Source: a virus
Length of the DNA stretch: 37,724 nt
Virus record (IMG/VR): IMGVR_UViG_3300045988_158116
Reading direction: 5' to 3' (one strand)
Shown: positions 1 to 37,724 of the stretch, piece after piece
Layout: each line of letters begins with the position of its first letter
How positions within the stretch are numbered: position 1 is the first letter of the stretch
Position numbers and translations under genes: made by a program
Notes under the pieces: model-generated
What the model was told of the DNA's origin: nothing
Databases searched by the model: none
Seen by the model: the letters and a program-made list of their open reading frames with translations, nothing else

Positions 1-53
1 GCAAGATTGGCTTTGGGAGCAGGGGGTCGTGGGTTCGAATCCCGTCGCCCCGA
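1..53 (+). tRNA. 3' portion (anticodon arm to discriminator) of a tRNA-Pro(UGG)-like gene; the 5' part lies left of the window
   Basis: Anticodon loop TTTGGGA at 12-18 (UGG); variable loop GGGTC; T arm GTGGG-TTCGAAT-CCCGT. The acceptor 3' strand CGCCCCG plus A53 implies C1:G72/A73, as in bacterial tRNA-Pro. The anticodon stem has one mismatch and the T stem has two G-U pairs. Confidence 0.55.
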
Positions 54-55
54 CA
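1..55 (+). repeat. attL core: direct repeat identical to 37670-37724
   Basis: GCAAGATTGGCTTTGGGAGCAGGGGGTCGTGGGTTCGAATCCCGTCGCCCCGACA is repeated exactly at the right end. The true repeat could extend beyond the window. Confidence 0.9.
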
Positions 56-112: not shown

Positions 113-292
113 GTTGTATATGGCTCATTTTTCAGTTATATTTTGTTAATTACGACCAATTATTTATGTGTTTTTATGCACTTTTGTGTCGCTTTGTGTG
201 GCTTTTTCACAGGTTTCTCACAAAAAAAGGGCAAAAAACGTGTTTTTACTGATTTTGAATACAATTATTAACGCTGAAAAAATGAGTTTGGC

Positions 293-1567
293 ATGGCTTA
301 TAAATTAAAATGGTATTTGGATTTAAGGAAATTGGATAAGGACGGTAGGGGAAGATTATATTTGGCGGTATATAACCAGGGAAGCACTGGACTGATTCCT
401 ACAGGGGTGGCTCTGATGGAGGGCGATTGGGGGAACGGACGAGTGATGAGGAGGGTTCCGCTTGCTGATAAGTTAACGATTATGCTTAAAGAGAAAATGG
501 TTAGGGTGCAGCTGGCGATAGAAGAACTTGCCTTGAGCGTGGACGTGAACTCGATGAAGGGAACGGACTTAAAGAAGGCTGCATTGAAGTATTTAAACCT
601 GGACGCTAAGGGGAGATGTGTGGGCAAGGTGGGGACTTTCGAGAAGTTCGCCAATAGGTATGTGGCAAGAATTAGGAATGAGAGGACGAGAGGGGTGTAT
701 GAGGGTACGGTTAAGAAGATTGGGAAATATTGTGACCTTGAGCAGTTGACTTTTGAGGATATAAAGGTGGGGTGGCTGAAGGACTTTGAGGCTTGGATGG
801 CTGAGACGTGTGGTGTGAATGCGAGGGGGATTCATTTGAGGAATATTAGGGCTCTGTTTAATGCTGCAATAGATGAGGAGGTTGTTGGGGCTGATGTGTA
901 TCCGTTTAGGCGCTTCAGGATTAAGAAACAAGCCACGATGAAAAGATCGCTGACGGTGCAGGATTTGAGGAGGTTGCGGGATTATCCTTGTGAGGATTGG
1001 CAGCGTAAGTATGTGGATATGTTTATGTTGTCGTTTTACTTGTGTGGGATAAACATGGTAGATTTGGTGGCGCTACCTAAGATTAGGAGGGGGGATGTGA
1101 TAGAGTTTAGGAGGAGTAAGACGGGTGTGCCTTGTAGGATGAAGGTGCCTGATGTGGCTTGGGATATTATTGAGAGGTATGCGGGTAGGGATAGGTTAGT
1201 GTGTTTTGGTGAGGACTGTGTGGGTGTGGGGGCATGGCATGATAGGTTGCACAGGATGAATATGGCGCTGCAGAAGGTAGGTCCTTCGAGCTACGTATAT
1301 GTGAGGGCTAAGGGAAGGGGGCGTAAGTTGAAGCGTGAGAAGGTGTATGAGGGGTTATTCCCTGAGTTGACATCGTATTGGGCAAGGCATACTTGGGCTA
1401 CGTTGGCAGCTGAAGTGGATGTGCCTGATGCGGTGATAGATGCTGCATTGGGTCATAGGTCGCCTTATCCAATGGCTGATATTTATATTCGGCGTAATTA
1501 TAAGAAGGTTGACGAGGCTGTGGATAAGGTGATTGCTTATTTGAATTGTTGTGATGTTATGTTGTGA
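293..1567 (+). CDS. int: Tyrosine recombinase / phage integrase (Bacteroidota type with N-terminal arm-binding domain)
   Basis: 424 aa, adjacent to attL. C-terminal catalytic motifs are ARHTWAT, LGHRS and ADIYIRR (Y). The N-terminus YLDLRKLDKDGRGRLYLAVY resembles arm-DNA-binding domains. Confidence 0.9.
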   Translation: MAYKLKWYLDLRKLDKDGRGRLYLAVYNQGSTGLIPTGVALMEGDWGNGRVMRRVPLADKLTIMLKEKMVRVQLAIEELALSVDVNSMKGTDLKKAALKYLNLDAKGRCVGKVGTFEKFANRYVARIRNERTRGVYEGTVKKIGKYCDLEQLTFEDIKVGWLKDFEAWMAETCGVNARGIHLRNIRALFNAAIDEEVVGADVYPFRRFRIKKQATMKRSLTVQDLRRLRDYPCEDWQRKYVDMFMLSFYLCGINMVDLVALPKIRRGDVIEFRRSKTGVPCRMKVPDVAWDIIERYAGRDRLVCFGEDCVGVGAWHDRLHRMNMALQKVGPSSYVYVRAKGRGRKLKREKVYEGLFPELTSYWARHTWATLAAEVDVPDAVIDAALGHRSPYPMADIYIRRNYKKVDEAVDKVIAYLNCCDVML

Positions 1568-2831: not shown

Positions 2832-3157
2832 AGTTGGATTTCATCCTTCGTTTTCTCGCCATGGCATAACTCGAGCAAGCTCGGTTCTGCTCATTTGGCT
2901 TAACGAAAACGTTCGGCACGTAAGAAGAAGTAGAAGACAATAACTGGAAAAAAATGGTGCTTGGGAGGTGACGTGCCAACGCGTCACGGTGACACTATGA
3001 CATATCCCCTAAAAGGACTGCGCGGGGGTGTGGGGTGTGAAGACATCGAATGGTATAGGGTTAGTGCACGGTGGTGCATGTGGTGGCTGCTATGCGTGGC
3101 GATGTGCCTGGGTGCTATATGTGAGCTATAAGATTATTAACAACGAAAAAAAAAAGA

Positions 3158-3400: not shown

Positions 3401-3601
3401 TGGAACGGTAATGCCGAGCAGGGTTGTGTGAGCAGAGCAACGTGGTGACTGCTGCATGTGTTGTGCCAAATTGTGTGGCTTGCGCCTGAGGTTTTATTGC
3501 TTGTATGGCGGGCTGCACGAAATAGTGAATATTAACATGTTTATTAAAAGGAGTAGTGGCATGGCGGTGGTGGTGTGCGTTTGTGATGACGCTTGCAAAT
3601 T

Positions 3602-3627
3602 GCGGTTCGAGTCCGCGACTCGGCACA
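3602..3627 (+). repeat. Left 26-bp direct repeat (tRNA T-arm plus acceptor-3'-strand-like)
   Basis: Identical to 5736-5761. Reads as T stem/loop GCGG-TTCGAGT-CCGC, then ACTCGGC plus A. Confidence 0.85.
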
Positions 3628-3637
3628 AAATGGTGAC

Positions 3638-4762
3638 ATGTATATGGAAAAGGAAACTGCGTTTAGGGACTATGCCAAACATTTAGCTAAAAATGGTGAT
3701 GGCTGCAATTATGCTACCATTGGTAAAAGGCTTTGTGTGGCGCAGAGGTATCTTGATGAGGTTGAGGGCTTGACGCTGAAAGATTATAGAAAATGGCGCA
3801 AGGAGAATGCTCAGAAAATAGTGTTTGACCATGCGAATGTGTATGACCTTTTAAGTCCGTTTCTACAGTTTGTGGGTATAAATAAGTGCGGTAAACGGTC
3901 GCGCGAGCCTAAGCCCCTTGCGAGCAAAAAGGAGGTGAGCGAGAGTTGTGAAAGAGAGGTAAATGCTTTTGCCTTATGGTTGCAAAACAACAATGACATG
4001 AGCACTCACACCATACGCAGTTATATCACGGCAATGCGCGAATATTTTGCTTACGCTGACAAGGTTAGCAATGAATTGGTGCGTGCTTACATGTGTACCC
4101 TTACGGCACAAGGACTGAAGCCTAATACGGTTAATTTGCGGTTATGTGCAATTAGGGCTTTTGCTAAGATGAAGCGCAAACAGCTTGATGTAAAACGCAT
4201 AAAAATACACCGTGTGTTAGACCTTGAAAATGTTCCGAACGAGACAGAGTTTAGAAAGCTTACCGAATGGTTAAAGCAGCAAGGCAAGATGCGGTTTTAT
4301 TTTGCAGTGTTGGCATTTGGTTTGACTGGTGCTCGTATTAGTGAGATGCTGCAAGTGACGTGGGAACAGATTGAGACAGGCGAGGCTGTGATGATAGGCA
4401 AAGGGCGTAAGCAGCGTAGGTTGTTCTTCCCGAAACAATTTCAGCGTGAGGCCGTGCAATATGCCAAGGCTAATAATTTGCACGGGTTGTTAATGACAAA
4501 CAAAACGGGAGAGCCCATTACGAGCCGTGGTTTTTGCTCTATGCTCAAGATTTATGGCGCAAAGTGTGGCATAGATAAGTGCAAGATGCACCCTCATGCT
4601 TTTAGGCATATGTTCGCCAAGATGTATTTAAAGAAGTCGAAAGGTGACATTGCTCAGTTAAGTGCCTTGTTGGGGCATTCAAAATTAGACACTACACATA
4701 TTTACATTCAAAAAAGCAAAGATGAACAACGCAAAGAATATGATAGAATCGTTACGTGGTGA
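3638..4762 (+). CDS. Second tyrosine recombinase (XerC/XerD-like integrase)
   Basis: Motifs are GARISEML (Arg I), HPHAFRHMFA (H-x-x-R) and LLGHSKLDTTHIYI (His/Tyr). Start chosen at the ATG at 3638 or 3644, just after the left repeat, rather than the ORF-track start at 3593. Confidence 0.85.
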   Translation: MYMEKETAFRDYAKHLAKNGDGCNYATIGKRLCVAQRYLDEVEGLTLKDYRKWRKENAQKIVFDHANVYDLLSPFLQFVGINKCGKRSREPKPLASKKEVSESCEREVNAFALWLQNNNDMSTHTIRSYITAMREYFAYADKVSNELVRAYMCTLTAQGLKPNTVNLRLCAIRAFAKMKRKQLDVKRIKIHRVLDLENVPNETEFRKLTEWLKQQGKMRFYFAVLAFGLTGARISEMLQVTWEQIETGEAVMIGKGRKQRRLFFPKQFQREAVQYAKANNLHGLLMTNKTGEPITSRGFCSMLKIYGAKCGIDKCKMHPHAFRHMFAKMYLKKSKGDIAQLSALLGHSKLDTTHIYIQKSKDEQRKEYDRIVTW

Positions 4763-5726
4763 GATAAAGACCCTTGACACCATGACGAACGAGTTAAAGG
4801 ATTGCACGCTCTATGACGAGACGGGGCACGTTGGTTTTGAACACTTGGAGGATACCATTGCGCTGATGAAAGAGTTCGCTCAAACAGCCATAAAATTCAA
4901 TAAAACAATAGAAAGTATGTTTGGCATTACTGACGATGATTCCCCTAAAAACGCTAAAGGCAAACGTGGTGGCTGTAAGCGTAAACCAGAAGATGTGTTG
5001 CGCGAGTTGACCCTTGATGATAAGGGCATAGTGCATTTGCCAAATGTGCAATTAGACGCTAAGACCTACGACAAGGTAAAACAGTATATAACCGAGGCTG
5101 GAGGAAATTGGGTAGGAGGTAAGACTCAAGGCTTTAGCTTTCCGTTTAACCCCGAACGTGTGTTCGCCATACTTAAAACTGGCAAGCGTTGCAATTTGGC
5201 ACAAGAGTTTCAATTCTTTGCCACTCCATCGACGATAGCCGACCGATTGGTAGCGTTAAACACTGCCATAAGCACCGCAGAGTGTGTGCTTGAGCCCTCG
5301 GCAGGTACAGGTGCATTGATTGAAGCTGTTTGGCGCAAATATCCAGATAAGAAGGTTGAATATTTTGAACTCATGCCTGAGAATAAGGAGAGGCTCGCAC
5401 AGATGCAAGGACCTATGGAGTTTCTTGGCGAGGACTTTCTGCAATGCGATGGAAACAGACGTTGGCAAGCTATAATAGCTAATCCACCCTTTAGTGGGAA
5501 CCAAGACGTTAAGCACGTGACGCGAATGTATGAGGCATTAGAGCGTGGTGGGTGCGTTACTGCCGTAATGAGTAATCATTGGACCTTTGCCGAGGAAAAG
5601 ATCTGTAAAGACTTTCGGCAGTTGCTTGAAGCCCAAGATGCACTCATTGAAAGTGTGCCAAGTGGTGCTTTCAGTAAGAGTGACACATCTATTAGTACAA
5701 CTATCGTACGGCTAATAAAGCCCTAA
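4722..5726 (+). CDS. Orphan N6-adenine DNA methyltransferase
   Basis: FATPSTIADRL, then motif I VLEPSAGTGAL, then motif IV IIANPPF. No adjacent restriction gene. Overlaps the recombinase by 41 nt; alternative starts at 4740 and 4782. Confidence 0.75.
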   Translation: MNNAKNMIESLRGEIKTLDTMTNELKDCTLYDETGHVGFEHLEDTIALMKEFAQTAIKFNKTIESMFGITDDDSPKNAKGKRGGCKRKPEDVLRELTLDDKGIVHLPNVQLDAKTYDKVKQYITEAGGNWVGGKTQGFSFPFNPERVFAILKTGKRCNLAQEFQFFATPSTIADRLVALNTAISTAECVLEPSAGTGALIEAVWRKYPDKKVEYFELMPENKERLAQMQGPMEFLGEDFLQCDGNRRWQAIIANPPFSGNQDVKHVTRMYEALERGGCVTAVMSNHWTFAEEKICKDFRQLLEAQDALIESVPSGAFSKSDTSISTTIVRLIKP

Positions 5727-5735
5727 AGCCATTTC

Positions 5736-5761
5736 GCGGTTCGAGTCCGCGACTCGGCACA
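5736..5761 (+). repeat. Right 26-bp direct repeat
   Basis: Identical to 3602-3627. Begins 9 nt after the methyltransferase stop. Here the T stem is perfect (CGCGG/CCGCG). Confidence 0.85.
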
Positions 5762-5854
5762 TTGTTTTTTTTATGGTGTGAAGATTTTTACACTTTACTC
5801 ATTGGTTACTATTTTTGGGTGCTTGCCTGCTGTGAAGCCCGTGGGCACCACCTT

Positions 5855-5928
5855 GGTGGGATAGGCTGTTAATGGGATAGGCAGCCATAAATCGGAACAT
5901 TAGTGGGGTTCGACTCCCCACCCCACCG
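5855..5928 (+). ncRNA. tRNA-like element (pseudo-tRNA or att-like minihelix)
   Basis: 74 nt. Acceptor GGTGGGA/CCCCACC pairs at 6 of 7 positions. T arm is perfect: TGGGG-TTCGACT-CCCCA. The D and anticodon regions do not fold canonically (4-bp stem with a 15-nt loop, 3-bp anticodon-like stem, no variable region). Confidence 0.4.
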
Positions 5929-6015: not shown

Positions 6016-9000
6016 ATGATTAGTAAAGAAACGATTGACCTGGTGCTGGACCGCACGATCCTTGAGGACGTGGTGCGTGAGAGCGGTGTGGCGCTAACGA
6101 AGCGGGGTAAGGACTTGGTGGCTTGCTGTCCGTTTCACGAGGAGAAGACTCCGAGTTTTTATGTGTCGCCAAGTAGACAGTTGTGGTACTGCTTTGGTGG
6201 TTGCCAAGAAGGAGGCAACGTGATAAGTTATGTGATGAAGCGCGAGGGGCTGACGTTTGTAGAGGCTGTGAAGAGGCTTGCTGAACGTGCGCACATTGAG
6301 GTGGAGAACGATGCCACCGAGGATGCGAACACGGAGCAACAACGGCTGAAGCGCGAGGCGATGACGCGACTGAACAAGAAGGTGGCGGAGTTTTATGACT
6401 CGCTGCTGCACGATGGCAGTAATGCGGACGCGGTGACTGCGCTGAATTATGCGCACCAACGGTTTGGCAAGAAGTATGTGGAGGAGGCAAAAATGGGTTA
6501 TGCCCCTAACAAATGGAACACGCTGACTGAGTGGGCACGCAAGACGGGCGAGAGCCAAGAGTTGTTGATAGAACTTGGGCTGCTGAAGCGCAAGGAGGAG
6601 AATGGACGGGTGTATGACTTTTTGCGTGGACGATTGGTGATTCCGATTACAGACCGACGTGGCGAAGTGATAGGCTTTACTGCCCGTAACCTTGTGGACA
6701 ATGTGGACGCTGCTAAGTATGTGAACTCTCAGGAGAGCGAGGCGTATCATAAGGGTGACACGGTGTTTGGCATGAACGTGGCCTTTGCCCAGGCTCGCAA
6801 GGAGGAGCGCATGTATTTGGTTGAGGGTGCGCCTGATGCGATGAAGATGCACTCGGTGGGTATTGATAACGTGGTGGCTACGTTGGGTGGTAACTGGACG
6901 GAGAAGCAGTTTGAGTTAGTGAAAAAGGCTGCTACGAACGTGTGCTTTATTAACGATGCCGACCCTGTGCCTGTGGGCAAGCGTTATGGCACGGGCATTG
7001 GTTATGTGCTGCGCAATGGTGAGTTGGCCATGAAGCAGGGACTGAACGTGACGGTGCGCGAATTGCCTTGCAAAGAGGGTAACTTGAAGCAGGACCCTGG
7101 CGACTTTTTTACGACCAGCACAAGGCTGAATGAGCTAAAGGAGGAGGACTTTGTGACGTGGGCTGCGCAAAAGATTATAGACAAGGATGCTCCGAGCGAC
7201 CGACTGAGTGCAGCGCTAAAGCAAGTGGCTACGTTGGCATCGTATGTGGTTGATGACACGCTACTGGAGATGTTGATTGACGGCCTTAACAAGATACGCA
7301 GAGGTAAGGAGTTTTGGCGTGGACTGATACAGAAGGTGCGATGGGACCGCGAGAAGACGGATAAGCGCAAGAATGGCGAGATTGACCTTAGGGAGTATGG
7401 CTTCTATAAGGAGGCGGGCGGTTATTGGGGTCAGACGGAGAAGGGCTCGGAAATTCAGTGGAGCAACTTTACGATGCGCCCTGTGTTCCATATTAAGGAC
7501 GCTGATCAGCCTAAGCGCATCTTTTATATAAAGAATAATAAGGGTGCTGAAGATGTGGTTGAGATGTCGATTGAAGACTTGGTGAGTTTGAGCAAGTTTA
7601 GGCAACGCATTGAAAGTATTGGTAACTACATGTGGATGGCAGGTGACCGCGAACTGATGAAGCTCAAGACCTACCTCTATGAGAACACCGAGACCTCGCG
7701 ACTCATTAAGCAGTTGGGGTGGAACCAAGCAGGCTTTTATGCCTTTGGCAATGGTGTGTGGATGGATGGAACATTTAGAAAGGCTGATGAATTTGGGGTG
7801 TGCAAATTACAGAATGGTGATAATTGGTATATACCCGCAGCCTCGAAACTTTACAAGGAAGACCGTAAGAAGTTTGAACGTGAGCGCAAGTTTATTCATC
7901 AAACCTTGCAGAATGTGCCTTTTAGGGGGTATATGGAGGACTTTGTAATGGTGTATGGCAACAATGGTATAGTGGGTTTGTGTTATTGGTTGGCTGCCTT
8001 GTTTAGGGATGTGGTGACGGATAGCACACGCTCCTTTCCGCTGCTGAATTTGTTTGGTCCTAAGGGTTCGGGAAAGACTGAACTGGGTGCTGCGCTGATG
8101 GCGTTTTTTGTGAGCGACAATAAGGCGCCCAACTTGCGCAACTCTACGGCTACGGCACTGAACGACGACGTGGCTTTTGCCTCGAATGCTCTTGTGCATC
8201 TCGACGAGTATAAAAACGACATTCGCCCTGACAAGATTGAGTTTTTGAAGGGACTGTATGACGGTGTGGGACGTGTGAAGATGTCGGGTGCTGCGTTTGA
8301 CGCTCGCATTATGACGAGTGTGAAGAGCGGTGTGATAGTTTCGGGACAGGAAATGCCTACTGCTGACCCAGCATTGTTTTCGCGTTGTTTGTTCTTGTCG
8401 TTTCCTCGATCGGAGTTTAGCACCGAAGAGTGCCGACGCTTTGCAGCGCTACGCGAGGTGCAAAAGTTTGGTTTGTCGTTTTTGACGATTGAGGTGTTGA
8501 AGCATCGCAAGCACTTTGCAGCCAACTTTGCCGATAACTATGCTTTGGTGCGCGACGAGGTGAACCGTATGACGGATTATGCACGTTTGGACACTCGTAT
8601 TGTGGAGAATTGGTGTAAGGTGGCTGCAGCGTTTAAGGTGCTTGAGGCGAAGTTGGACTTTCCGTTTCACTATGCCGAGGTGTTGCGCTTGTGCGTGGAT
8701 GGTATCAAGACGCAGAACGACATATTGAACACGGGCAACGAGCTCGCTGTGTTCTGGACGGCTGTGGCTTACTTGAAGAACACGGGCGAGGTGTTTGCCA
8801 CTGCCGACTATAAGATAGCCACCTTGCAAACGCTGCGCACTACGAAGCAAGACTTTGACTTTGGCACTCCAAGGCGCGTGATCTACGTGAACAAGAGCCG
8901 ATTGTTTAGCCTCTACAAGCGTGCAGCTTTGCAAACGGGCGATTCGGCATTGCCTGAGGATTCGCTGAAGATATACTTAGAGAATGCCGACTACTTTTTG

Positions 9001-9186
9001 GGTTATGCGCGAAGCGTACGTTTTAAACAGATTATTCACGGCATAAAGCAAGTAGTGGTTACGGGCGATGGCCATACGCGCGACAAAGAACAAGTGTTGC
9101 AAGCTATGTGTTTTAACTATGACAAGATAGTGGAAAGGTATGGCATTGAACTCGAAGACCAGCTAAGTGGTGGATTTACTGACTAA
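6016..9186 (+). CDS. DNA primase / P-loop helicase fusion (DnaG-like zinc finger and Toprim, plus C-terminal NTPase)
   Basis: CHC2 zinc finger CCPFHEEKTPSFYVSP...CFGGCQEGG. Toprim motifs YLVEGAPDAMK and INDAD. Walker A GPKGSGKT and Walker B VHLDEY in the C-terminal half. 1056 aa. Confidence 0.9.
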   Translation: MISKETIDLVLDRTILEDVVRESGVALTKRGKDLVACCPFHEEKTPSFYVSPSRQLWYCFGGCQEGGNVISYVMKREGLTFVEAVKRLAERAHIEVENDATEDANTEQQRLKREAMTRLNKKVAEFYDSLLHDGSNADAVTALNYAHQRFGKKYVEEAKMGYAPNKWNTLTEWARKTGESQELLIELGLLKRKEENGRVYDFLRGRLVIPITDRRGEVIGFTARNLVDNVDAAKYVNSQESEAYHKGDTVFGMNVAFAQARKEERMYLVEGAPDAMKMHSVGIDNVVATLGGNWTEKQFELVKKAATNVCFINDADPVPVGKRYGTGIGYVLRNGELAMKQGLNVTVRELPCKEGNLKQDPGDFFTTSTRLNELKEEDFVTWAAQKIIDKDAPSDRLSAALKQVATLASYVVDDTLLEMLIDGLNKIRRGKEFWRGLIQKVRWDREKTDKRKNGEIDLREYGFYKEAGGYWGQTEKGSEIQWSNFTMRPVFHIKDADQPKRIFYIKNNKGAEDVVEMSIEDLVSLSKFRQRIESIGNYMWMAGDRELMKLKTYLYENTETSRLIKQLGWNQAGFYAFGNGVWMDGTFRKADEFGVCKLQNGDNWYIPAASKLYKEDRKKFERERKFIHQTLQNVPFRGYMEDFVMVYGNNGIVGLCYWLAALFRDVVTDSTRSFPLLNLFGPKGSGKTELGAALMAFFVSDNKAPNLRNSTATALNDDVAFASNALVHLDEYKNDIRPDKIEFLKGLYDGVGRVKMSGAAFDARIMTSVKSGVIVSGQEMPTADPALFSRCLFLSFPRSEFSTEECRRFAALREVQKFGLSFLTIEVLKHRKHFAANFADNYALVRDEVNRMTDYARLDTRIVENWCKVAAAFKVLEAKLDFPFHYAEVLRLCVDGIKTQNDILNTGNELAVFWTAVAYLKNTGEVFATADYKIATLQTLRTTKQDFDFGTPRRVIYVNKSRLFSLYKRAALQTGDSALPEDSLKIYLENADYFLGYARSVRFKQIIHGIKQVVVTGDGHTRDKEQVLQAMCFNYDKIVERYGIELEDQLSGGFTD

Positions 9187-19099: not shown

Positions 19100-19164
19100 A
19101 CTGGGCTAGACTGGGCTAGATTTACTAGAAGAACTAGATTTACTAGAAGGGCTAGAGAGGGACT
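19097..19164 (+). repeat. CTAGA-core tandem array 1 (7 units)
   Basis: TAGACTGGGC x2, then TAGATTTAC, TAGAAGAAC, TAGATTTAC, TAGAAGGGC, TAGAGAGGG. Period is 10 nt, then 9 nt. Confidence 0.85.
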
Positions 19165-21939: not shown

Positions 21940-22359
21940 ATGGCAACTTTATATCCTGAGAAAGTGAAGTATATTATTGTGCATTGCTCGGCTACGGCTG
22001 AGGGTAAGGATTTTTGCGCAAAGGACATTGATCGTTGGCATCGTGCTAAGGGTTGGGATGGTATAGGGTATCACTATGTGGTGAAACTTGATGGTACCGT
22101 GGAGAAAGGACGCGATGAAACTAAGGTGGGCGCTCACTGCGCTGGCGTGAATGGCATTAGCCTTGGTGTGTGCTATATTGGTGGACTCGCTGCGGACGGA
22201 CGCACGCCTAAGGACACACGAACCGTGGCACAGAAGGCTGCGCTGGTGGCACTTGTGGAACGGTTGAAGAAGAAGTATCCGAGAGCTCGGGTGGTGGGAC
22301 ACCATTACTTTAATAAGGGGAAGGCTTGCCCTTGCTTTGAGGCTGAGAAGGAGTTTTAA
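21940..22359 (+). CDS. N-acetylmuramoyl-L-alanine amidase endolysin (Amidase_2/PGRP type)
   Basis: IIVHCSAT, WHRAKGWDGIGYHYVV, GAHCAGVNGISLGVCYIGG and GHHYF..KACPCF. Confidence 0.9.
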   Translation: MATLYPEKVKYIIVHCSATAEGKDFCAKDIDRWHRAKGWDGIGYHYVVKLDGTVEKGRDETKVGAHCAGVNGISLGVCYIGGLAADGRTPKDTRTVAQKAALVALVERLKKKYPRARVVGHHYFNKGKACPCFEAEKEF

Positions 22360-22447
22360 TAGATGGCTAGATGGGCTAGATGAGCTAGATGGACTAGATA
22401 GACTAGATGGACTAGATAGACTAGATGGACTAGATGACTAGATAGAA
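22360..22447 (+). repeat. CTAGA-core tandem array 2 (10 units, strict 9-nt period)
   Basis: TAGATGGC, TAGATGGGC, TAGATGAGC, then alternating TAGATGGAC/TAGATAGAC. It starts in the codon after the endolysin TAA. Confidence 0.9.
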
Positions 22448-22457
22448 GATTGATGGT

Positions 22458-22879: not shown

Positions 22880-23956
22880 ATGGCTGTGATGGTAACACAA
22901 GGATGGCGCGAAGCGATGTTTCCGAGTGAACTCAACGTGATAGAGTTGACGGGATGCGGTGAACAAGTAAGGGTGGTGCTAACACTGGGAAGCAATAAAG
23001 TGTTTGAAGCTACACTCACTACGTTAAAAGGCAAGGTGAGAATGGAAAACCTTATGCCTTTGCTTCGCGACAAAACCACCGACCCAATAGACGGCGTGCA
23101 ACCACAATATCTCAGCTTAAATGTAGACGGCAAAGATTTGGAAGAATGCAGATGCTTGCTTATTCCGTGTCGTGTGCGTGTGGCAGATGTTACAGCTATG
23201 CAGGTGGTGAATAATGCGTTTTTGACGTTTGCTGGGCGCGAACCCAAACTTATACCCCAACAAGCGAAAGAAATGCTTTATTGGTATAAATTCGGTGAGG
23301 ATTTGAGCCAAGTGAAGGCTACAGCCAATGCCTGTTGGTGGAACGCTGAGACACAGCAAGTAGAGAACACCGAACAAAGACTTGAGGTAGGCGAAAATGT
23401 TGAAGGGGGATTGTTCTATTTAGACGCTTCGCCCCAAATGCTCACCGCGCCCCGTGGCAATCACGCTGCGTGGGCCTTGGTGAGCTATGAGGTGAAGGTG
23501 GGCGCTCGCACTATGCGCTACAGGCTGATGCCACAAGGCATGAACTTGGCACCTGTGACGGGGGTGCGCTATCGTAATGCACTTGGGGTAGATGATACGT
23601 TCTACTTCTTTGGTGCGGTGACAGAGAAACTTAAACCTACGTATAGCGCTGCGCAAATAGGAGGCGTTACTCGTAACTATCGCATAGAGGCACAAACTGA
23701 GTGGGAGGCACAAACAGGACCTATGACGCGTGGCATGGAACGCTTGTTGCATGATGTGGCGGTGGCACGTAGGGCTTGGCTGTTGGCTGATGGCGAGGAA
23801 ATTACGCTGACGGGGTGTGACATAAAGCAGAGTAATGAATGGGGCATTACGCCTACTGCTGCTGTGAGCTGGCGCGAAGCAGGCGAGGGACAACGCTTGA
23901 TGGCTCCGACGGGGGTGCGGACTTTTGACGGGAGCTTTGACGAGGCTTTCTTGTAA
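22880..23956 (+). CDS. Hypothetical virion protein
   Basis: 358-aa ORF. Confidence 0.65.
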   Translation: MAVMVTQGWREAMFPSELNVIELTGCGEQVRVVLTLGSNKVFEATLTTLKGKVRMENLMPLLRDKTTDPIDGVQPQYLSLNVDGKDLEECRCLLIPCRVRVADVTAMQVVNNAFLTFAGREPKLIPQQAKEMLYWYKFGEDLSQVKATANACWWNAETQQVENTEQRLEVGENVEGGLFYLDASPQMLTAPRGNHAAWALVSYEVKVGARTMRYRLMPQGMNLAPVTGVRYRNALGVDDTFYFFGAVTEKLKPTYSAAQIGGVTRNYRIEAQTEWEAQTGPMTRGMERLLHDVAVARRAWLLADGEEITLTGCDIKQSNEWGITPTAAVSWREAGEGQRLMAPTGVRTFDGSFDEAFL

Positions 23957-23961
23957 GAGAA

Positions 23962-24010
23962 CTAGAGGGGCTAGACGAACTAGAGGGGCTAGATGGGCTG
24001 GCGCTTGAGG
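23962..24010 (+). repeat. CTAGA-core array 3 (4 units) plus GGCTGGCGCTTGAGG module
   Basis: CTAGA at 23962, 23971, 23980 and 23989. GGCTGGCGCTTGAGG at 23996-24010. Confidence 0.85.
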
Positions 24011-24078: not shown

Positions 24079-25413
24079 ATGACAACTTCGGAGATTTTTG
24101 ACATACCGCAGACACCGTTTCAGGCGGTGATGCAAGAGGTGGCGGACACTACCTCGGTTTTTGACTCGCCTGGTGGACGTTTGCATGTGCGACCTGTGCC
24201 TGGGTTTGAGCATGAGATGTATGTGCCTTATGGCGATGACAACCAATTGCCCTATGAACTGATTGCGTTGGTGGGGGGAGACGAGGTGACGGCACAGAAT
24301 AAACTTTTTAATGTGCTGACCTGCTATGGGGCAGGACTGCGCATGGTGGATGCTGCATCGGGCGAGGTGACGCAAAACGCAGACGTGAAAAGTTGGATGC
24401 GCCGTCAGTTTATGCCCAGGTATATGCTTGACCAAATGACGGACATGAAATATTTTTACTACTCGGTGTGCGTGATCATTTTGAACCGCGAGGGAACGCG
24501 CATTAACCGTTTGGTACATAAGGAGGCTTGCTACTGCCGACTGGAGCAAGCGGATAAGCGTGGACGCATTGGGCATGTGTATTATGCAAATTGGCAGGAC
24601 TACCAAGAAACGCTGTCGGGTGTGGAAAGAATAGAGTTGTTGGATCCTGACGACCCTTATGGGGATTTGTGTGGGCGCATGGGAATTGACCCTGACACGC
24701 GACGACCTAATGGGCGACCTAAACAGCGGTGCAGAAAGTTTGCGATGCTGATGCGTTTCCCGACGGCTGGGTGCCAATATTACCCCGTTCCTTACTGGAG
24801 TGCGGTGTTAAGGGGTGGATCGTATGACGAGAAGCGTTTGATTTCGACTGGTAAGCGTGCGAAGCTTAGAAACACGACGAGTGTGAAGTATCAGGTGGAG
24901 ATTGAGCGTTCGTATTGGCAACGTATTTGCACTGAGGAGAACATTACGGATCCTGTGGAGATGCAGGAACGTGTGAAGCGCGAGAAGGAGAACATTAAGA
25001 ACTTTGTGTGCGGTGTGGAGAACTCGGGCAAGGCTTGGATTAGTGGCTACTATGTGAACCCTGATGGGCACGAGGTGCGCGATATTCGCGTGACGAACAT
25101 TGAGGGACAGAAGGAAGGTGGCGACTGGAACGAGGATGTGCAGGCTGCTGCGAACACGATTTGCTATGCTGACAATGTGCATCCTAACCTTGTGGGTGCT
25201 GTGCCTGGTAAGACGCAAACGAATAACTCGGGCTCGGATAAGCGAGAGTTATTCACGATGAAGCAGGCTTTGGAGATTGCTTTTCATGATATGCTGCTTG
25301 TGCCCTTGCATGTGGTGTGCTGGTTTAATGGGTGGACGGATGTGGTGCCACAGATACCGATGATTCAGCTGACTACGCTGGATAAGCATAAGGATGCGGA
25401 GGTGGTGAAATAG
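24079..25413 (+). CDS. Hypothetical virion protein (portal candidate by size only)
   Basis: 444 aa. No portal-sized gene follows TerL, so this is the best-sized candidate. No motif verified. Confidence 0.6.
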   Translation: MTTSEIFDIPQTPFQAVMQEVADTTSVFDSPGGRLHVRPVPGFEHEMYVPYGDDNQLPYELIALVGGDEVTAQNKLFNVLTCYGAGLRMVDAASGEVTQNADVKSWMRRQFMPRYMLDQMTDMKYFYYSVCVIILNREGTRINRLVHKEACYCRLEQADKRGRIGHVYYANWQDYQETLSGVERIELLDPDDPYGDLCGRMGIDPDTRRPNGRPKQRCRKFAMLMRFPTAGCQYYPVPYWSAVLRGGSYDEKRLISTGKRAKLRNTTSVKYQVEIERSYWQRICTEENITDPVEMQERVKREKENIKNFVCGVENSGKAWISGYYVNPDGHEVRDIRVTNIEGQKEGGDWNEDVQAAANTICYADNVHPNLVGAVPGKTQTNNSGSDKRELFTMKQALEIAFHDMLLVPLHVVCWFNGWTDVVPQIPMIQLTTLDKHKDAEVVK

Positions 25414-25525
25414 ATGGACTAGAGGAGCTAGAGAGACTAGACGGGCTAGACGGACTAGACGGGACTAGAGGGGATAGACGGGACTAGAGGGGCTGGCGCG
25501 ATGACTAGAGAGGGGTAGATGAGAC
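25411..25525 (+). repeat. CTAGA-core array 4 (11 units) with an internal GGCTGGCGCGATGA module
   Basis: Six TAG triplets at 25411, 25420, 25429, 25438, 25447 and 25456 are in frame with the upstream stop. The module lies at 25491-25504. Confidence 0.9.
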
Positions 25526-27645: not shown

Positions 27646-27881
27646 AGATGCGTAAGATTTATTTGAAGGATGCGTTGCGACTGCTTGAGGATAAGGGGGC
27701 GCATGACTTGAAGGTGTGGAAGTTGAGCACTGGGGACATTTTGAGCTATAAGGGTGCTGTGTGCGTGGGTGGCTGGAACCGCGGTGGCACGCATAGGGTG
27801 AAGCTGCCTAAGAGTGCGCTGATTAGGGAGTTTCGGGATGTGACGGTGTTTGAGGTGGATGGTATGGAGGTGTATTGGTGA
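27642..27881 (+). CDS. Hypothetical small protein
   Basis: ATGA overlap with the upstream stop at 27642-27645 (track start 27636). Confidence 0.55.
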   Translation: MKMRKIYLKDALRLLEDKGAHDLKVWKLSTGDILSYKGAVCVGGWNRGGTHRVKLPKSALIREFRDVTVFEVDGMEVYW

Positions 27882-27981
27882 TAGATGGGTAGATGGGCTA
27901 GACGGACTAGAAGGCTGGCGCGATGAATGGGGCTAGATGGGCTAGATTGACTAGAGGGACTAGAAGGGCTGGCGCTTGAGG
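27882..27981 (+). repeat. CTAGA-core array 5: two sub-arrays, each closed by a GGCTGGCGC module
   Basis: TAGA units at 27882-27911, then GGCTGGCGCGATGA (27913-27926). Units at 27934-27966, then GGCTGGCGCTTGAGG (27967-27981). Confidence 0.9.
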
Positions 27982-37669: not shown

Positions 37670-37724
37670 GCAAGATTGGCTTTGGGAGCAGGGGGTCGTG
37701 GGTTCGAATCCCGTCGCCCCGACA
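37670..37724 (+). repeat. attR core: displaced partial tRNA 3' copy
   Basis: Identical to 1-55. The upstream sequence (AAAAAGTTAGATGTTGTT) is not tRNA-like, so the intact tRNA must be on the left side. Confidence 0.9.

Follow-up and report, generated by a model that had tools for sequence, protein, structure and literature searches.

We analysed a 37,724-nt stretch of viral DNA (IMG/VR record IMGVR_UViG_3300045988_158116; "the window" hereafter means this whole stretch), in which two overlapping genes, encoding a tyrosine recombinase and a DNA methyltransferase, are enclosed by two exact copies of a 26-bp sequence that reads as the 3' end of a transfer RNA (tRNA). We consider that this segment, termed the cassette, is on balance probably a site-specific integrative cassette of the tRNA-targeting kind that resides inside a phage genome, with the adjacent recombinase as the candidate enzyme. 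In addition, the left 26-mer was found to complete a non-canonical tRNA-like element (TLE) of the phage, TLE-1, and a second such element, TLE-2, lies on the other side of the cassette. Related contigs are designated by numbers preceded by L. The features concerned are as follows.

3413..3625, plus strand: TLE-1, a non-canonical tRNA-like element and the proposed integration target (fold, homology, compensatory changes)
3602..3627, plus strand: left direct repeat, an attL-like cassette junction that completes TLE-1 (exact repeat, empty-site comparison)
3638..4762, plus strand: Xer-like tyrosine recombinase (Pfam, PDB relatives, NCBIfam, catalytic residues)
4722..5726, plus strand: predicted orphan gamma-class N6-adenine DNA methyltransferase, 334 amino acids (PHROGs, PADLOC, AlphaFold/Foldseek, motifs)
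5736..5761, plus strand: right direct repeat, an attR-like cassette junction (exact repeat)
5762..5772, plus strand: T-rich run TTGTTTTTTTT, the apparently displaced 3' flank of TLE-1, terminator-like (found directly after the single 26-mer in empty-site phages)
5855..5928, plus strand: TLE-2, a 74-nt tRNA-like element (fold, conserved island, compensatory changes)

The 26-mer GCGGTTCGAGTCCGCGACTCGGCACA occurs exactly at 3602-3627 and 5736-5761, both on the plus strand, and no third copy was found in the window at up to three mismatches. None of 100 dinucleotide shuffles contained such a duplication, indicating that none is expected by chance, and local alignment of the DNA upstream of the two genes with that downstream of them gave z = 12.8 against shuffles. 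The recombinase ATG at 3638 follows the left copy after 10 nt, and the methyltransferase stop codon precedes the right copy by 9 nt; the segment from 3628 to 5761 (2,134 bp) thus consists of the two plus-strand genes and one 26-mer. The initial annotation had claimed exact repeats at these coordinates, with exactly two overlapping genes between them and gaps of 10 and 9 nt, and all of this was upheld. The 26-mer is laid out as a T stem, the T loop TTCGAGT, the other strand of the T stem, the acceptor 3' strand ACTCGGC, a discriminator A and a final CA, so that the block of identity begins on the 5' side of the T stem and ends 2 nt beyond the discriminator. Its sole polymorphic base is base 10, which is G or C and corresponds to T-loop position 59, a position that is freely variable in tRNAs. 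The left copy always carries G, while the right copy and the empty sites described below carry G or C; the T-loop variant TTCGACT is present in the right copy of L004, L047 and L063. An attempt to read the side of the crossover from base 10 gave conflicting data unless this base lies within the overlap region, and no conclusion was drawn from it. The right copy has no tRNA-like body, the space for it being filled by the conserved C terminus of the methyltransferase, and a terminator-like structure was predicted at 5741-5757 together with the T-rich tail. As a separate observation, the heptamer TGCCGAG, which can pair with CTCGGCA, is found at 5588-5594, within the methyltransferase gene and 170 nt ahead of the right copy, and mirrors another TGCCGAG located 212 nt upstream of the left copy. 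The probability of the heptamer at 5588-5594 arising by chance is approximately 1-5%, and its codons are not conserved in distant homologues.

We scanned IMG/VR and a metagenome collection for the core of the repeat and recovered 16 contigs, of which 4 were viral and 12 were metagenomic. The empty site predicted by the initial annotation, in which a single 26-mer joins base 3601 to base 5762, was present in eight independent contigs from related phages (L001, L003, L013, L045, L046, L049, L054 and L055). At this junction, the sequence …CGCTTGCAAATT runs through one 26-mer straight to TTGTTTTTTTTATGGTGTG…. The site is occupied in the window, L002, L004, L047 and L063, as well as in further contigs found through the protein; because L004 and L047 are identical across the cassette and its flanks, these five occupied contigs represent four independent sequences. 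The same occupied structure was observed in many independent assemblies from different studies. In neighbour-joining trees of both flanks, the occupied and empty alleles were interspersed, indicating repeated gain or loss of the cassette, or recombination between phages. The presence-absence polymorphism must therefore be old and must have arisen or been reshuffled more than once.

Comparison of related phages indicated that the left 26-mer is the 3' end of what appears to be a real, conserved, non-canonical tRNA-like gene of the phage. TLE-1 has a length of 213 nt. Its acceptor strands are GCCGAGC on the 5' side and ACTCGGC on the 3' side, the latter following a T arm and preceding a discriminator A, and its body is expanded, with approximately 150 nt at its centre in place of the anticodon arm. 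The GCCGAGC at 3413-3419 pairs with ACTCGGC at six of the seven positions. The initial annotation had read the 26-mer as a tRNA 3' end composed of T arm, acceptor strand and discriminator, and this reading gained support from the environmental contig L050, in which the 24-nt core (C variant) followed by CCA forms the 3' end of a genuine tRNA-Phe(GAA) at 819-896. It had also held that neither copy follows a tRNA body or a 5' acceptor strand. In part this was correct, as GCCGAGT is absent upstream of the 26-mer and no canonical tRNA is present; however, GCCGAGC at 3413 and a non-canonical body do precede the left copy. The proposal of a tRNA-like pseudo-target without a body therefore gives way to a target that appears to be the 3' end of a conserved phage tRNA-like RNA gene. 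The G variant of the 24-mer had no match in 185,579 species genomes, among which the C variant was not searched. We also noted, in L053 at 134-157 (minus strand), the 3' half of a tRNA-Phe with the T variant of the T loop and without a 5' half. It adjoins toxin-antitoxin genes only, with no integrase, and looks like the att (attachment site) remnant of an unrelated element; it is uninformative for the cassette.

The conservation of the two elements is seen in the L017-type phages, whose primase is 87% identical to that of the window. Between these phages and the window, the intergenic DNA preceding the primase gene can hardly be aligned outside two islands, namely the 26-mer and a second tRNA-like 3' end approximately 140 nt downstream. 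In the L017-type phages, GCCGAGA is located 94 nt before the 26-mer and is homologous to GCCGAGC at 3413 in the window; the two versions of TLE-1 share …AGGGTTG…TGCTGCATG…, and that of the window carries approximately 120 additional nt. Both versions are predicted, at minimum energy, to fold with a closed acceptor stem and a closed T arm; their energy z-scores are unremarkable. A 142-nt homologue of TLE-1 in L061 has the CTGCTGCATGAAG motif in common, and in it pairing is kept despite changes to both bases at pairs 2 and 3 of the acceptor stem and pairs 1 to 3 of the T stem. The fold of TLE-2 (z = -2.6) comprises an acceptor stem and a T arm, with a D-like hairpin and, where the anticodon arm would be, a linker of 17 nt between them. 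Among its homologues, both bases are substituted in acceptor pairs 1, 2, 3 and 5 and in T-stem pair 2, several one-sided changes produce G-U pairs, and the A7-C66 mismatch is conserved. All of these compensatory pairs were counted from sequences read directly from the loci. ARAGORN called no tRNA gene in the window and passed over both elements, and Rfam gave nothing in the window at the gathering score; on TLE-2, it gave weak matches to tRNA-Sec (17.9 bits against a gathering score of 47) and mascRNA.

To survey the occurrence of such elements, 1.37 Mb of fetched loci was scanned for a T arm accompanied by a complementary acceptor strand. Elements missed by ARAGORN were found in the Bacteroidales phages L061, L064, L070, L071, L072, L076, L078 and L025-27, the exception being a "tRNA-???" call at L064. 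They are located at 4224 and 4414 in L017, 6610 and 6777 in L061, 5769 in L064, 8136 in L070, 4838 in L071, 507-1412 in L072 (five in a row), 1342 and 5455 in L076, and 4043 in L078. The members of this family have a 7-bp acceptor stem, a variable centre ranging from 17 to more than 100 nt and a canonical T arm, and they lie in phage early regions. Many possess a D-like hairpin with the loop motif TAA(A/T)NGGA, and one carries a GNRA-capped insert. Wherever the gene orientation of the phage is known, the elements are on the coding strand, the minus-strand matches being loci that were fetched reversed. Because complementarity was demanded by the scan itself, the unbiased evidence of covariation comes from the comparison of the window with the L017-type phages, which were found by synteny, and from the independent hairpin and linker motifs. 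Independently of the cassette, these elements may represent a new family of non-coding RNAs in phages. In the literature searched, we found no description of either the cassette or the tRNA-like elements.

The first gene of the cassette encodes the second tyrosine recombinase that the initial annotation had placed beside the left repeat, and its identity was confirmed, with a full catalytic set. The gene callers used for other contigs start it at the alternative ATG at 3644, which yields a protein of 372 amino acids. Pfam detected Phage_integrase (7e-21) and SAM_1, a SAM-like N-domain, and the best solved relatives by sequence were XerA (PDB 4a8e, 1.4e-15) and XerD. The residues R233, K255/K258, H320, R323, H347 and Y356, which correspond to the R, K, H-x-x-R, H and Y of tyrosine recombinases, are invariant in 22 homologues, and the enzyme is thus predicted to be catalytically complete. 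We also evaluated whether it could be a XerC, XerD or XerA chromosome-dimer resolvase. This candidate was rejected: the NCBIfam scores were all below the equivalog cut-offs (XerA, 130.9 bits against 220; XerC, 119.5 against 335; XerD, 86.9 against 330), and no dif-like site was identified. Integron-integrase models matched only approximately 50 residues near its C terminus and scored 50 bits, the cut-off being 265. In the protein, the SAM-like and catalytic domains were the only ones assigned; an arm-binding domain was not recognised, and the first ~100 residues are uncharacterised. Within the cassette, there is no third gene, and no excisionase or directionality gene was recognised.

The methyltransferase gene starts within the recombinase gene, overlapping it by 41 nt. 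Its product possesses an uncharacterised N-terminal domain of approximately 160 amino acids, and its motif I (LEPSAGTG) and motif IV (NPPF) are invariant in 33 homologues. It matched phrog_9133 at 1.4e-56, along with DNA methyltransferase families of PHROGs, as well as the Type II and orphan methyltransferase models of PADLOC at ~1e-10, while the Pfam Eco57I match was below the cut-off. By sequence, no significant match was obtained in the PDB. The AlphaFold model (pLDDT 82.7) was most similar in a Foldseek search of the PDB to HsdM (2okc), PacII (7vs4), CamA (7lni), M.TaqI (2adm) and M.BseCI (7qw5), with E values from 4e-10 to 3e-08. The labels of relatives differ by source, being either "predicted RNA methylase" or "SAM-dependent DNA methyltransferase". 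The modelled fold and the motifs support its assignment as an orphan N6-adenine DNA methyltransferase, which is what the initial annotation had proposed. No restriction endonuclease partner was found, either in the two-gene cassette or among its neighbours, which are TLE-1, TLE-2 and the primase gene. Its most probable role would be to methylate phage or host DNA, serving as restriction protection or as an epigenetic mark.

Taken together, these features suggest the following scenario. The cassette would have entered at the 3' end of TLE-1 through site-specific recombination of the conservative type, such that the left copy of the 26-mer regenerated the element, with the recombinase gene directly beside this copy, and the original T-rich 3' flank of TLE-1 was displaced to the far end of the cassette. 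The catalyst was likely the Xer-like tyrosine recombinase of the cassette itself, which would bind to dyad-symmetric arms provided by the T stem, with the crossover taking place in the T loop. If this enzyme made and can reverse the insertion, recombination between the direct 26-mers, presumably by way of a circular intermediate, would remove the cassette precisely and leave one 26-mer, as in the empty-site phages.

Several results weigh against this scenario. First, divergence among the phages was 2.8-4.7% in the cassette and 1-4% in the flanks, and no pair of an occupied and an empty contig had near-identical flanks. Because the cassette has diverged as much as its flanks and no near-identical pair exists, there is no sign of recent movement, and the cassette appears to be an old resident and not a recent invader. 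Second, the junction expected of a circle (…AAAGCCATTTC-26-mer-AAATGGTGACATG…), which the initial annotation had put forward for checking, was not seen in the 4 viral and 12 metagenome contigs bearing the core, assemblies being a weak test for it. Third, the cassette was not found in any other context, a check that the initial annotation had suggested: all 17 contigs with an identical recombinase carry it at the same site in the same prophage family, and the core occurrences gave no second context next to it. Fourth, loss of the cassette could also occur through homologous recombination between the 26-bp repeats, which would not require the recombinase. Fifth, the recombinase and methyltransferase genes form a pair in other phages, and there they lack the repeats. 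Thus, of the initial proposal of a minimal self-integrating element, the repeats, the empty sites and the intact recombinase stand, whereas a circle and a second context are missing, and the pair is fixed elsewhere without repeats.

The distribution of this pair deserves description because it underlies the most serious alternative. At 37-79% identity and in the same overlapping arrangement, the pair is present in many viral and metagenome contigs and in Bacteroidales genomes, among them those of Phocaeicola, Bacteroides, Prevotella, Paraprevotella and Butyricimonas. It is usually located among early or replication genes (DnaB, primase, DUF7833). No flanking direct repeats were detected in 17 other contexts of the pair (z from -1.0 to 1.5), and no 26-mer-like or T-arm-like site was found near it in the 12 contexts scanned, which included its closest relatives at 72-79% identity (L057, L062 and L146). 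A search through the neighbouring gene for empty sites of the 72%-identity lineage (L057) yielded no close relatives in IMG/VR. As far as these sequences go, the pair behaves as a conserved phage module in which att-like repeats are apparently confined to the present lineage. Because it is fixed elsewhere without repeats or a 26-mer-like site, we infer, and do not observe, that this recombinase moves this cassette. Two further observations were made around the pair. In L146, where the methyltransferase is 79% identical and the pair again precedes the primase gene, a further gene of the Phage_integrase family (316 amino acids, 1938-2888) lies directly upstream of it. Just upstream of a distant pair, exact 98-bp direct repeats are found 973 bp apart (2914-3011 and 3887-3984 in L007; 1695-1792 and 2668-2765 in L008), which we regard as a separate duplication or insertion.

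Under this alternative, the pair is an ordinary early module of Bacteroidales phages whose recombinase has another job, such as multimer resolution or another rearrangement; the module was inserted here once by another enzyme or event, and the empty sites arose later through homologous recombination or exchange between phages. We regard this explanation as doubtful, though a serious contender. It accounts well for the conservation of the overlapping pair near DnaB, primase and DUF7833 genes in phages that have no flanking repeats, for the absence of a 26-mer-like site in the three closest relatives, for a cassette as old as its flanks and for the lack of any other insertion context. However, it does not predict that the extent of the duplication should be exactly that expected of a tRNA-type att core, or that the repeats should abut the genes at 10 and 9 nt with an intact recombinase beside the regenerated RNA gene. 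The right copy has no tRNA-like body and is thus not the remainder of a paralogue. In addition, a 26-bp repeat is barely long enough for RecA-type recombination, and still the cassette appears to have been lost or gained precisely in several clades.

A second alternative is that the 26-mers are RNA-processing or terminator modules, duplicated for expression and stabilising the upstream and cassette transcripts, and not recombination sites. The 26-mer and the T-rich run do score as terminator-like, TGCCGAG lies 170 nt upstream of the right copy and 212 nt upstream of the left copy, and these phages frequently carry tRNA-like elements on the coding strand. Nevertheless, this explanation leaves the precise one-copy presence-absence alleles unexplained. 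The common C variant breaks the alternative terminator hairpin, while the T-arm reading tolerates it, and the heptamer in the methyltransferase gene could be due to chance, given the probability and the lack of codon conservation reported above. We therefore consider it very unlikely. Finally, nothing was found in favour of a chance or assembly duplication with no biological meaning, which is excluded by the absence of such repeats in the shuffles, the many independent assemblies and the clean empty alleles.

If the recombinase does move the cassette, the latter would be among the smallest known autonomous integrative elements, needing approximately 2.1 kb for a recombinase, its 26-bp site and a single cargo gene. 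Its parasitism would be directed at a phage and not at a cell, the target being an RNA gene of that phage, and integration into tRNA-type genes would then operate inside viral genomes too. The methylation state would be a switchable accessory trait of a gut or oral prophage, with a bearing on restriction evasion and host range, and the recombinase and its site could provide a compact pair for Bacteroidales genetics. The interest of the cassette is held down because no direct sign of mobility was found and the pair is fixed as a module elsewhere. A broader hypothesis joins the two parts of the analysis: the tRNA-like RNAs without an anticodon arm would be an undescribed class in Bacteroidales phages, the pair would be a self-mobile "epigenetic" mini-element that uses their T arm and acceptor end, and possibly those of the matching host tRNA too, and the elements would serve as landing pads for cassette exchange between co-infecting phages. 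In this combined form, the hypothesis is speculative and, in our view, unlikely to hold as a whole; if it were true, the site would be a phage-internal platform for integrative cassettes and not the scene of a one-off insertion.

The cassette is nested in a complete prophage, as the initial annotation had stated. Direct 55-bp repeats, identical to each other, form the two ends of the window (1-55 and 37670-37724) and correspond to the 3' part of tRNA-Pro(TGG); an intact host tRNA-Pro(TGG) is present at the corresponding place, just outside the phage integrase, in L045 and L047; the window thus extends from attL to attR. Its remaining features are listed below.

1..55, plus strand: prophage attL, 55-bp 3' part of tRNA-Pro(TGG) (exact repeat; intact tRNA-Pro in L045 and L047)
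293..1567, plus strand: the prophage's own integrase, Bacteroidota type (Pfam Phage_int_SAM_5, Arm-DNA-bind_5 and Phage_integrase; PHROGs integrase family)
6016..9186, plus strand: primase gene, the right-hand neighbour of the cassette site (Pfam Zn_ribbon_DnaG, DNAG_N and Toprim)
37670..37724, plus strand: prophage attR, the second 55-bp copy (exact repeat)

We also considered whether the 26-mer could be the core of the phage's own attP. This was ruled out because the separate integrase of the prophage uses the 55-bp tRNA-Pro core, which is a different repeat and forms the prophage ends. The genes of the window are all on the plus strand, with a strong GC skew. The prophage is of the Alloprevotella type; the host-side RecG belongs to a 90%-identity cluster that includes an entry from Alloprevotella sp. 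A comparison with the GenBank phage collection revealed no relative of the region, the sole match being 84 bp long. The contigs L151 and L152 (1-1650) contain the same cassette-bearing prophage with different DNA to the left of the phage integrase, where one contig has RecG and its neighbours and the other has DUF5053 together with other genes. This difference may reflect integration at a second site, a tandem element at tRNA-Pro or the presence of a different host.

Two further kinds of repeat were observed in the prophage. Perfect 21-bp inverted repeats (1694-1714 and 2281-2301) surround a 566-bp segment (1715-2280) that holds a repressor-like gene on the minus strand (1729-2145). This segment, found in both orientations among closely related phages, probably serves the lysogeny region as an invertible switch. 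The orientation seen in the window was found only in cassette-bearing phages (3/3), and the other orientation in all of the empty-site phages compared (4/4). The possibility that the cassette recombinase is the invertase of this segment was not adopted; the association has p ~0.07, and the inverted repeats show no relationship to the 26-mer. Among 13 other pair-bearing loci scanned, a comparable inverted-repeat segment was clear in one, L061, where an analogous 25-bp inverted repeat surrounds its 138-aa gene. In addition, a 9-nt unit, CTAGA(T/C/G)GG(G/A), forms short intergenic arrays between genes of the structural module at 19108-19164, 22359-22451, 23954-24010, 25402-25485 and 27881-27981 (repeat families D1 and D2).

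Several known systems resemble the cassette in part. Like integron cassettes, it combines a small promoter-less cargo with a tyrosine recombinase and a structured site. Unlike them, it carries its own recombinase and has no attC-like or attI-like sites. An integron was rejected as an explanation, since the IntI-type models were far below the cut-off and the window contains no attC-like repeats. Tycheposons of marine cyanobacteria, reportedly described by Hackl and colleagues in 2023, are said to be small tyrosine-recombinase elements located at tRNA 3' ends, with variable cargo and some interaction with phages. They occupy host chromosomes and genuine tRNAs and usually carry replication or packaging-related genes. 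The cassette is similar in being a small tyrosine-recombinase element with cargo at a tRNA-type 3' end; it differs in lying inside a phage and in having a cargo that is conserved as the partner of its recombinase.

Mobile restriction-modification or methyltransferase units that are linked to integrases and flanked by direct repeats have also been described (Furuta, Abe and Kobayashi 2010, PMC2853133). The cassette shares with them a methyltransferase linked to an integrase homologue and a repeat-bounded presence-absence polymorphism; unlike them, it has no restriction partner, lies in a prophage at a tRNA-like gene and consists of a pair that is conserved across phages. The XerC/D-dif, XerA-dif and Cre-loxP systems are similar in that the recombinase is composed of a SAM-like N-domain and a catalytic domain, that 26 bp is near the length of dif and lox, and that direct sites give excision. 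In contrast to these systems, the dyad of the 26-mer is short, being that of the T stem, and does not look like dif, and the NCBIfam Xer scores are far below the cut-offs. Moreover, a resolution site would be single, whereas the cassette has a pair of sites that flank the recombinase gene.

The closest parallel is offered by the genomic islands and prophages that target tRNA or transfer-messenger RNA (tmRNA) genes, which use tyrosine integrases and whose repeats correspond to the 3' part of the tRNA. A T-loop sublocation class of such integration is said to have been defined by Williams in 2002. The cassette departs from these elements in its target, which is a phage-encoded non-canonical tRNA-like element and not a host tRNA, and in its simplicity, comprising 2.1 kb, a single cargo gene and a simple Xer-like enzyme, with no recognised arm-binding domain or excisionase. 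As in these elements, its repeats start in the T stem of a tRNA-shaped gene and finish just beyond the 3' end, a copy of this gene appears to be restored at one junction, the integrase gene lies next to this junction and the empty sites are precise.

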